A stretch of 32,000 bases of DNA from Candidatus Iainarchaeum sp. Lineage in GTDB: Archaea > Iainarchaeota > Iainarchaeia > Iainarchaeales > CSSED10-239. Each line of letters starts with the position of its first letter. The first letter of the stretch is position 1. The stretch covers positions 637,465 through 669,464 of the forward strand of contig JBBISB010000001.1 in assembly GCA_037441475.1 (NCBI GenBank), in the 5' to 3' direction. The notes beneath the pieces are model-generated. The model saw only the letters and a list, made by a program, of their open reading frames with translations, ran no database searches and was not told the origin of the DNA. The translations under genes were made by a program, and so were the position numbers. This document shows, one piece after another, positions 29,922-31,914 of this stretch.

Positions 29922-31616
29922 ATGCAAGAAACTTTTAAAAATATAATTTTAGAAAATGCTGTAAAGTATAAGGGAAAAGCAGAAATTAAGTTTATTTTAG
30001 GAACATTTTTAAAAGACTTTCCTGAATATAGACAAAAAACAAAAGAATTAACAGAAGAGCTTTTACCATTAATAGAAGAGATTAATAACTTGTCTTTAGA
30101 AAAACAACAAGATCTTTTAAAAGAAATTAATCCTTCTTTCTTTGAAAAAAAAGAAAAAGAAGAGAGAAACATCTTTGCCTTCCTTAATATCAAAGAAGGA
30201 GAAAAAGTAATTTCTTGTTTTCCTCCTGGTCCTGAAAAATATCCACATATAGGTCACTCTAAAGCAGTTTTACTTAATTATCTTTTAACAAAACAATATA
30301 ATGGAGAATTTTATTTAAGGTTTGAAGATACAAACCCTAAGCTTGTTAAGCCTGAGTTTTATACAATTATGCAAGAGGATTTTAAATGGCTTGGTGTTGA
30401 ATGGTCAAGAGTTGAGTATGCTTCTGATTATATAGATCTGATGAAGGAGATGGCAGAAAAGTTAATTTTAAAATCACAAGCATATGTTTGTTTCTGTTCT
30501 CCTGAAGATATGAGTAAGAATAGAGAAACATCAACTGCATGTGAGTGTAGGAAAGTATCTCCTCAAGAAAACTTAATCAAATGGAAGGAAATGGAAGGTT
30601 ATCCTGAAGGAAAAGCTTCTTTACGTTTAAAAATAGATTTAAAACATAAAAATTCAAGAATGAGAGATCCTTCAATCTTTAGAGTAATAGATTGTGAGCA
30701 TCCAAGAATAGGTTACAAGCATAGAAATTATCCTACTTATGATTTTCAAAATGCTGTTTTAGATGGTTATTTTAAAACAACTCATAGACTAAGAACTGTT
30801 GAGTTTGAGATGGCTTCAGAGCTTCATCATTATATTAGAAAAATTTTAGGTCTTTATGATACATATACTTATGAGTTTGCAAGAATGAATCTTGAGGGAA
30901 TGTTATCTTCTGGAAGAGCTATTAGAGAAAAGATTGAATTCGGAGAGCTTATAGGTTGGGATGATCCTTCTCTTCCTACTCTGCGTGCACTTAAAAGAAG
31001 AGGTTTTACAGCAGAGGCTATCAAGCAAATGGTTATTGAGTCTGGAATTACAAAGTCTTCTGGTTCTCTGCTTACATGGGATACAATTATTAAGTATAAT
31101 AAAAGAGTTTTAAATGATTCTTCAAAAAGATTTTTCTGTATAAAGGAACCTATTGAAATAACAATTGAAAATGATCCTTGTAAGAAATATTATCTTCCTC
31201 TTCATCCTGCTCTAAATCTTGGACAAAGAAACTTTTCTTCAAATGGTGTTTATTTAATAGAGAAAGAAGATTTTGATTATTTTAAGGAAGGAAATCTTGT
31301 AAGGCTTATGGATAATGTTAATTTTAGGGTAAATGATGGAAAGTTTGTTTTTGATTCTGAGGATTATTTATATTTTAAAAATGAACTTGCAGAAAATAAA
31401 AAAATAATACATTTCCTTCCAAAAGACCCTTCTCAATTAATAGATATTACAATCTTTACTCCTGAACATCAAACAATACAAGCAAAGGCTGAAAAAACTA
31501 TTGAACAGTTGTCTGTTGGAGATATTGTTCAGTTTGAGAGATTTTGTTTTGCAAGACTTGATTCTTTAGAGGAAAAGGAAGGAAAGAAGGTTTATAACTT
31601 TTGGTTTACACACTAG
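29922..31616 (+). CDS. gltX: glutamate--tRNA ligase, archaeal/eukaryotic (GlxRS) type
   Basis: HIGH motif in PEKYPHIGHSKA. RFEDTNP. GWDDPSLPTLRALKRRGFTAEAIKQ. Archaeal N-terminal extension NAVKYKGKAEIKFILGTFL. Confidence 0.9.
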   Translation: MQETFKNIILENAVKYKGKAEIKFILGTFLKDFPEYRQKTKELTEELLPLIEEINNLSLEKQQDLLKEINPSFFEKKEKEERNIFAFLNIKEGEKVISCFPPGPEKYPHIGHSKAVLLNYLLTKQYNGEFYLRFEDTNPKLVKPEFYTIMQEDFKWLGVEWSRVEYASDYIDLMKEMAEKLILKSQAYVCFCSPEDMSKNRETSTACECRKVSPQENLIKWKEMEGYPEGKASLRLKIDLKHKNSRMRDPSIFRVIDCEHPRIGYKHRNYPTYDFQNAVLDGYFKTTHRLRTVEFEMASELHHYIRKILGLYDTYTYEFARMNLEGMLSSGRAIREKIEFGELIGWDDPSLPTLRALKRRGFTAEAIKQMVIESGITKSSGSLLTWDTIIKYNKRVLNDSSKRFFCIKEPIEITIENDPCKKYYLPLHPALNLGQRNFSSNGVYLIEKEDFDYFKEGNLVRLMDNVNFRVNDGKFVFDSEDYLYFKNELAENKKIIHFLPKDPSQLIDITIFTPEHQTIQAKAEKTIEQLSVGDIVQFERFCFARLDSLEEKEGKKVYNFWFTH

Positions 31617-31785
31617 AGTCCCTTTAGAAAAGCGGCTTCACCCGGAAAGGAGTCACTTTAGAAAAGCGGCTTCACCCGGAAAGGAGTCTCTTTAGAAAAG
31701 CGGCTTCACCCGGAAAGGAGTCACTTTAGAAAAGTGGCTTCACCCGGAAAAGAGCCCCTTTGGAAAAGTGGCTTCACCCGTAAAG
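31616..31785. repeat. 34-bp tandem direct repeat, 5 copies (consensus GAGTCACTTTAGAAAAGCGGCTTCACCCGGAAAG), decaying further to about 31830
   Basis: Unit boundaries at 31616, 31650, 31684, 31718, 31752 and 31786. Copies 1-3 differ only at unit position 6. Units are 17/34 G+C in a very AT-rich context. No spacers. Confidence 0.9.
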
Positions 31786-31914
31786 GAGTTCCTTTAGAAG
31801 AACTGTTTTCGGTCAGTTCACACCCAATGGTTTTTCATTTCCTCTGGAAAGAAAAACTAATGTTAATTTGTTTAAGAAAAAACTATATTTGTTGGACATT
31901 AAAATGGTAAGTGC

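Follow-up and report, generated by a model that had tools for sequence, protein, structure and literature searches.

The 34-bp tandem array behind gltX of a Candidatus Iainarchaeum genome: a probable amplification within a dispersed family of 3′-end hairpins

Why should the gene for glutamyl-tRNA synthetase (GluRS), gltX, end in more than five head-to-tail copies of a 34-bp sequence, in an archaeal genome with an overall G+C content of only 28%, and what might such copies do there? The array lies near the end of a 32,000-nt stretch of DNA (hereafter the window; G000:C1:637465-669464) from Candidatus Iainarchaeum sp., whose source genome, G000, is a scaffolded metagenome-assembled genome (MAG) of 769 kb in two contigs (C1, C2) with three 100-N gaps. 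We conclude that the array is very probably an amplified member of a dispersed family of hairpins found at gene 3′ ends, built on a ~35-nt element that we call U (GAGCCCCTTTAGAAAAGTGGCTTCACCCCCAAAAG). A fuller explanation, in which a recent lineage-specific amplification of U is combined with action of U and a companion module, H, as RNA 3′-end structures, is in our judgement the probable one. The more specific proposal that the family serves in 3′-end definition or protection, which supposes that the array is transcribed, is put forward tentatively.

The array behind gltX and its dispersed relatives

Tandem Repeats Finder delimits the array at window positions 31616-31799, with a period of 34, 5.4 copies, 91% matches, no indels and a score of 298, making it by far the strongest repeat of the window except for a coding 75/150-bp repeat; the whole array is found once in the assembly. 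The original prediction, made from the window sequence alone, had described five abutting units plus a degenerate copy, starting on the gltX stop codon, with about 50% G+C. Each of these points is borne out: the G of the TAG stop (31614-31616) doubles as base 1 of unit 1, no spacers separate the units, and their G+C content is 44-53% (0.475 across a 200-nt segment) compared to 0.28 for the genome. The array is also non-coding, as had been proposed. Its longest open run is 46 codons, and no tRNA or tmRNA gene was detected in the region. Stops in all six frames and a period that is not a multiple of three rule out a protein-coding repeat. A CRISPR (clustered regularly interspaced short palindromic repeats) array is ruled out by the abutting units and the lack of a match to CRISPR-DR models.

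All units lie on the plus strand, and comparison of them confirms the differences noted in the original prediction. Units 1-3 (31616-31649, 31650-31683 and 31684-31717) are alike but for a single base, at unit position 6 (C/A/T), which is the mismatch position of the U stem described below, and they have the derived states T4, C18 and GG29-30 in common. Unit 4 (31718-31751) is two bases off unit 2 and retains the ancestral T18, so that an A6-U18 pair completes a perfect 10-bp stem of -9.3 kcal/mol. Unit 5 (31752-31785) is four to five bases off units 1-4, matches our sequence model of U (model R1), and of all array copies stands nearest to the consensus of the single-copy family members (GAGCCCC..GTGG). 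Of the sixth copy only 15 nt are left, GAGTTCCTTTAGAAG (31786-31799), whose last G is base 31800, the first base of H. The two meet at an AAG|AAC junction that resembles the U|H junction of the congener G006, and that would be compatible with a small deletion between two AAAG motifs of one unit. The predicted polarity away from gltX is there insofar as divergence rises distally, but its reading as decay is not favoured. Because units 4 and 5 keep the states of single-copy relatives (T18, and GAGCCCC in unit 5), the gradient looks more like age than like the decay of an array that was once uniform, and the newest, near-identical copies would be those beside gltX. It is a weak trend: units 4-5 have 5 differences from the consensus and units 1-3 have 6-7.

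U is not confined to gltX. Three further loci in G000 carry a single copy: one is 8 nt beyond the rps7 stop codon (C1:102560-102595, minus strand), one shares bases with the TAG that ends a kaiC-like ATPase gene (C1:113335-113370), and one is 1 nt past tRNA-Ser(gct) (C2:5669-5705), where a degenerate hairpin follows. At all four loci U is sense to the upstream gene and stands between co-directional genes. In metagenome scans an exact 25-mer of the array found no match, and a degenerate 23-mer of U matched just two contigs, each the equivalent of a genome that we had in the sample. With model R1, U was detected in 9 of the 16 genomes sampled from the family, in 4 of 16 from one other family, and in no others among 151 genomes of the order. 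The kaiC site also holds U in G002, G018 and G019, which makes four species, from two genera, with U at this position. Elsewhere in the order, genomes of another family have U flanked by a tRNA gene on one side and a duplicated piece of that tRNA on the other (a 3′ part in G058 and G100, loci L100 and L102; a 5′ part in G030, locus L101), which is the footprint expected of integration or excision at tRNA genes.

The gltX locus itself can be followed through the genus. The closest named genome is the complete one of Candidatus Forterrea multitransposorum (CP045477, G003), a DPANN archaeon described as a Diapherotrite (PMC5905446). Its GluRS is 85% identical to that of G000, the two genomes are congeneric, and gltX orthologues in the six congeneric genomes (G001-G006) have 70-85% identity. 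The original prediction had named absence of the array, or variation in it without consequence, among near-identical strains as a finding that would speak against it; at the species level this is what we see, the 3′ module of gltX being U+H, H+U, a degenerate H, or nothing. In G006 one unit-like copy (GAGCCCCTTTAGAAAAGGTGCTTTCCCCCTAAAAG) is followed by the hairpin GAACTAGTTTTGCTCAGTTCACACGCAAT, the same order as at the array end in G000. G003 and G004 have, in this order, an H hairpin, a G+C-rich hairpin and one unit-like copy; G002 has a degenerate H hairpin alone; in G001 and G005 neither U nor H was found behind gltX. The next gene in G003, G002 and G004 is the same as in G000, encoding a metallo-β-lactamase (MBL)-fold hydrolase and preceded by the same conserved box, so no foreign DNA has entered between the two genes, and the extra ~150 bp in G000 is the amplification. 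The conserved adjacency of gltX and the MBL gene in three congeners without the array speaks against the suggestion that a mobile element left its scar or edge here. Some congeners have a single copy or another order of modules, and others have none; the array would then be a dosage variant, and its amplification is probably neutral or at most alters the dose of the function. As occupancy of a given gene end varies between species, no one copy is essential.

Tandem amplification of these modules has occurred repeatedly. At the kaiC site of G002 there are two head-to-tail U copies (at least 1.6) with a period of 34, the contig ending in the second copy. H has been multiplied in a perfect 49-bp ×2.2 repeat between two tRNAs in G020, as two adjacent copies in G003, and as 1.5 copies behind tRNA-Arg in G008, and a mixed (H-U′)×2 repeat with a period of 62 lies behind a tRNA in G004. 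The gltX array is the largest of these examples, and by itself it is an ordinary local amplification. One U copy would have grown into a tandem array, likely via replication slippage or unequal recombination.

Structure and placement of the U and H modules

An ungapped alignment of 26 U copies (alignment A2) supports a hairpin in which columns 1-10 pair with columns 14-23, giving the stem GAGCC-n-CUUU / AAAG-n-GGCUU around the loop AGA. The stem has a 1×1 mismatch at 6/18, which is moved to 5/19 in about half of the copies. Standard pairs occupy 93% of cells, and in four of the nine pairs both partners have changed (1-23, G·U/C-G; 3-21, G-C/A-U; 4-20, C-G/U-A; 7-17, C-G/U-A). The covariation score was reached by none of 500 shuffles, and in controls with the 3′ partner slid by 1-3 columns pairing fell to 49-78% with 0-2 double changes. 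The minimum-free-energy fold of single copies is the same hairpin, at -5 to -9 kcal/mol. An alternative second helix (18-20 with 27-29) was rejected, since only 65% of its cells pair, no better than the slid controls. The dyad that the original prediction placed at the unit junctions (CCG-G-AAAG-GAGTCA-CTTT...CGG) is present in the sequence, but it is less well supported than the competing 10-bp hairpin inside each unit. After the stem comes a tail that is conserved as sequence (CAYCCCCAAAAG, or CACCCGGAAAG in the array) and predicted to be single-stranded. At some loci (L048/L106, the kaiC 3′ end of G018; L092 in G020; L078 in G014) long AT-rich hairpins (CCCAAGAAAAA...TTTTTCTGGG and CACAGAAAA...TTTTCTTGTG) are inserted in U between stem and tail, and constitute a third repeated hairpin family of these genomes.

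The pair 1-23 is G·U in 20 of the 26 copies. On the opposite strand the G·U pairs of the stem become C·A mismatches, which argues for a role as RNA, or at least as a single strand, on the sense strand. As expected from the G·U pairs, the array region folds much better than shuffled sequences on the plus strand (z -3.9), and on the minus strand it does not (z -0.4). Taken together, the stem and its strand preference point to U being an RNA element that acts on the sense strand. Of the three roles put forward in the original prediction, namely a protein-binding DNA array, a mobile-element scar and a structured 3′ untranslated region (UTR), it is the last that is best supported.

The second module, H, consists of a hairpin with a UUCG-type loop, then CACCCAATGG (as RNA, the tail RCRCSCAAUGG), then a T-run. 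Behind the array it occupies 31800-31835 on the plus strand, with the stem and loop GAACTG-TTTTCGGT-CAGTTC at 31800-31819, the tail ACACCCAATGG at 31820-31830 and a T5 at 31831-31835, and it scores 51.6 bits with a covariance model of H (model R2). The H alignment (A3) shows covariation of the stem (GAACUG/CAGUUC, AAGCUG/CAGCUU, AAACUU/AAGUUU), with G·U pairs beside the loop. U and H have a common layout of a hairpin followed by YUUCAC(N)CCCAA. Model R2 finds 5-11 H copies per genome in 18 of the 22 family genomes. There are five H loci in G000, with H following tRNA-Ala(tgc) and tRNA-Ser(cga), and H variants follow both tRNA-Gly genes. Behind tRNA-Ser(cga) (G000:C1:351979-352100) a degenerate U (CTTTTTAAAAAAGCACTTCCCCCAAAAT) lies ~30 nt after H, as it does at the orthologous loci of G003 and G004 (L131, L132); the H-then-U order of the G003 gltX end thus recurs there.

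Most of the best 30 H matches lie behind an upstream gene on the same strand, while some of the rest could not be placed. Among these 30, seven begin 1-3 nt from a tRNA 3′ end, six begin no more than 2 nt from a stop codon, often with bases in common, and four more begin at 10-32 nt. Five of the 30 abut the 5′ end of an antisense tRNA-Leu; two of these (L117, L139) are preceded by a sense gene that stops just before the tRNA, and the remaining three either have no sense gene ending at that point or are too close to a contig end to have one. At gltX and at the tRNA sites of G000 the H tail is followed by T5-T7. Most other tRNAs of this genome run straight into T-runs, and for this reason U and H look like inserts between the gene end and its oligo-T tract.

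The hairpin family appears to be undescribed. An Rfam search returned matches to tRNA only, with none for U, H or the blocks described next even at E values up to 1-10, and neither module was found in the literature searched. In a sister genus (G021, G009 and G018; loci L042-L046, L077, L091, L093 and L104) a conserved block X, GGGGGTCATTTTCGGGGGGGTAGSTGTCCAGTG, precedes U and H. These X-U-H units are multi-copy, stand beside divergent gene starts, and occur in at least five near-identical copies on different contigs of G021. Judged by sequence alone, the U tail CCCCAAAAC could pair with the X stretch GUUUUCGGGG, its complement. The sequence GTCCAGTGGAAC may resemble the core of archaeal origin recognition boxes.

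Possible function and competing explanations

What could these modules do? In Forterrea and related Iainarchaeota, U and H stand on the sense strand straight behind stop codons and tRNA 3′ ends, ahead of the oligo-T tract at which transcription ends in archaea. We propose that they form parts of the 3′ trailers of mRNAs and pre-tRNAs. A transcript of gltX would then end in five and a half U hairpins followed by H and U5. The modules might mark or assist the transcript end, or block 3′-to-5′ decay, and the conserved tails could be a recognition or cleavage site for a protein or nuclease. As for comparisons, the oligo-U / aCPSF1 (FttA) signals of archaea are alike in that U and H sit just upstream of T-runs at gene ends, but those signals are the U-tract alone, and PMC7515710 describes no conserved hairpin or CACCCAA-type box with them. 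Clusters of 3′ hairpins proposed as intrinsic terminators in bacteria likewise comprise several adjacent RNA hairpins ahead of a transcript end, although they are unrelated hairpins in bacteria (PMC8355165), whereas the gltX array is made of copies of one conserved module in an archaeon.

Several observations weigh against such a role. Archaeal termination is reported to need only U-rich tracts and no hairpin (PMC7515710). The U units have no T-run of their own, and in H an 11-nt spacer separates hairpin and T-run. A classical intrinsic terminator of the bacterial type, in which a U-tract begins 0-2 nt after a G+C-rich hairpin, is ruled out on these grounds, as U lacks a U-tract and the spacer before the T5 of H is itself conserved; a terminator scan flags neither module, but its consensus is bacterial and uninformative for an archaeon. 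The U hairpins are only moderately stable, the -5 to -9 kcal/mol of single copies corresponding to z-scores of -2.3 to +0.6. Genus g4 also has multi-copy blocks of U and H ahead of divergent genes, where they have no sense gene before them. In family f10 a U lies between duplicated tRNA fragments, suggesting that the modules can also spread in the manner of a selfish repeat. Finally, occupancy of a given gene end differs between species.

The strongest competitor, which we consider unlikely, is that U and H are selfish palindromic repeats, akin to miniature inverted-repeat transposable elements (MITEs) or repetitive extragenic palindromic (REP) sequences. They would multiply and spread by themselves and collect at gene ends solely because a compact genome tolerates them at few other sites, the array being a functionless local expansion. 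The modules are indeed shuffled (U-H, H-U, H-H, X-U-H), the blocks of G021 are dispersed and near-identical, the f10 arrangement gives an att-like picture, some tandem duplications are recent and perfect, and occupancy varies between species. Against this, copy number is very low (four U loci and five H loci in G000, and a single U in the complete Forterrea genome), orthologous sites are retained across genera, and compensatory changes maintain the stems. All U loci of G000, and for the most part the strongest H matches, have the same orientation as the gene upstream of them. Around the single copies neither terminal inverted repeats nor target duplications were seen; some congeners have empty or differently filled sites. 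A Y1 transposase of the REP-associated tyrosine transposase (RAYT)/IS200 type (PF01797) is absent from G000, from the complete G003 and from three U-rich genomes, G021, G018 and G009. Only three of the 22 genomes of the family have it, and these lack any strong match to U, G014 having one weak, partial match; a TnpB-type match fell below the cut-off.

The nearest analogue is the REP sequence of enterobacteria and its composite form, the bacterial interspersed mosaic element (BIME), which is reported to stabilise upstream mRNA against 3′ exonucleases and to assist termination. U, too, is an extragenic imperfect palindrome of 20-40 nt at gene 3′ ends, its copies in G000 lying behind stops or tRNAs. 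The likeness extends to imperfect palindromes of ~35 nt with a conserved mismatch, to positions behind stop codons between co-directional genes, and to mosaics of at least two module types, sometimes in tandem. However, REP/BIME elements number tens to hundreds of copies per genome and have a cognate RAYT/Y1 transposase, whereas U and H number 4-11 per genome in an archaeal host, and the enzyme was not found in the genomes that carry them. U and H fall outside the REP/BIME class on both copy number and transposase. They also differ in having a conserved single-stranded tail after each hairpin, and in that many copies follow tRNA genes.

Two readings assign a more particular function to the tail. 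One, which we hold to be distinctly improbable at this stage, is that U and H represent a novel archaeal 3′-end RNA signal, in which the hairpin and a single-stranded C/A-rich box (CAYCCCCAAAAG or RCRCSCAAUGG) would be read by a dedicated factor or would pair in trans as an anti-Shine-Dalgarno-like seed. If so, U and H would define mRNA and pre-tRNA ends outside the oligo-U/aCPSF1 model in a genome of 28% G+C, and behind gltX nature would have raised their dose five-fold. The other is a long shot. It holds that a small regulatory RNA, cut from the 3′ UTR here but encoded by genes of its own in other genera, has U as its active part. The exposed C-rich tail of U (UUCACCCCC) would pair with G-rich, Shine-Dalgarno-like targets (GGGUGA), and the array would serve as a sponge or a regulator with several binding sites. 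In favour are the sequence conservation and predicted single-strandedness of the tail, and the GGTGA or AGGGTGA ribosome-binding sites that can be seen ahead of G000 genes. The U and H of genus g4 come after a G-rich block with a promoter-like TATA and end in a T-run, resembling an RNA gene of ~90 nt; but this block can equally be read as the upstream control region of a divergent gene, and the tail varies (CAUCCCAAAA, CAGUCCCAAAAC, and CCGGAAAG in the array itself), which makes a fixed seed doubtful.

It is very improbable that the array works as duplex DNA, that is, as an iteron, a centromere-like site or an operator for the MBL-fold gene, the first two of which the original prediction had listed. 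Spacerless head-to-tail repeats of a few tens of bp, here 34 bp or about 3.2 helical turns, are typical of such arrays, and the promoter box of the next gene lies 75 bp downstream. But the unit is dispersed, occurring singly behind unrelated genes and tRNAs, and in congeners the order gltX-MBL and the promoter box persist although only one U, or none, is present. The neighbouring genes (gltX, the MBL-fold hydrolase gene and a nucleotidyltransferase-like gene) include no rep, par or partition function, and the conserved hairpin with its G·U pairs is strand-specific, which would be meaningless in duplex DNA. A replication origin at the array was considered and rejected, as the sole orc1/cdc6 gene (Cdc6_C match, C1:412.8 kb) is 256 kb away. 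Finally, the MAG is scaffolded across N gaps, a second tandem repeat touches one of these 1.7 kb downstream of the array, and a G002 contig breaks inside its U repeat. An assembly artefact in the array or its copy number is nevertheless extremely improbable. Substitutions tell the units apart, so that at k=46 and above every k-mer here occurs only once and a standard assembler can resolve the copy number. The flanks are colinear with those of three congeners, and the array sits 1.8 kb inside contig C1 and not, as had been a concern, at a contig end.

Gene neighbourhood and wider meaning

The genes on either side of the array are co-directional. Upstream, gltX (29922-31616, plus strand) is an open reading frame (ORF) for an archaeal-type glutamyl-tRNA synthetase of 564 aa, identified as a class I Glu/Gln-type enzyme by its Pfam matches (tRNA-synt_1c, E 7e-74, and both anticodon-binding domains). 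Directly 5′ of it (28880-29777) are a nucleotidyltransferase gene (Polbeta/NTP_transf_2) and then an ORF with a HEPN domain, in the order of a HEPN/MNT toxin-antitoxin pair. Downstream, the MBL-fold hydrolase gene begins at 31915 on the plus strand and continues past the window end at 32000; its product has 188 aa (Lactamase_B, E 3e-26), and the gene is syntenic in G003, G002 and G004. Between H and this gene lies an AT-rich hairpin, TTTTTCATTTCC-TCT-GGAAAGAAAAA (31831-31856, plus strand), identified by folding and not conserved in relatives, followed by the box AAGAAAAAACTATATTTGTTGGACA (31874-31898, plus strand). In G003, G002 and G004 the matching box is AAAAACTAT(A/G)TTTGTTGGACA, at an equal distance from the ATG, and it is likely the promoter of the MBL-fold gene, with a B recognition element (BRE) and TATA box. 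Given this fixed spacing, the array is upstream of the promoter box and not part of it. A 58-codon ORF with a GTG start (31734-31910) runs from unit 4 through H and the box. It owes its existence to the loss of a TAG in unit 5, no relative has a counterpart, and it is almost certainly spurious.

Two further features lie just past the window. At G000:C1:~670915-670987, ~1.5 kb past the window end, a 15-bp unit (CTATTTCCTTTATAG) is repeated perfectly in tandem at least 4.7 times; this repeat abuts the 100-N scaffold gap at the end of C1, and probably marks where the contig broke. A G+C-rich motif, (ATATAT)-CTCTTTTCAA-nn-GGGTAGCTGGCCGAGAAA, has nine sites in G000. It usually stands 70-110 nt 5′ of a start codon with a TATA-like box ~12 nt ahead of it, and looks like a shared promoter/leader or regulator site; the copy after the MBL gene (C1:669953-669970, minus strand) is oriented antisense into that gene.

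How archaeal transcripts are ended and protected is understood only in part, and we know of nothing in this respect for DPANN lineages. Tracing one array has led to two conserved, structured non-coding modules at the ends of tRNA and housekeeping genes in a DPANN family. Assemblies of these genomes are prone to breaks or miscounts at such repeats, and the modules are of use in annotation as landmarks of gene 3′ ends. A signal composed of a hairpin and a box upstream of a U-tract would be a concrete and testable addition to archaeal 3′-end biology.

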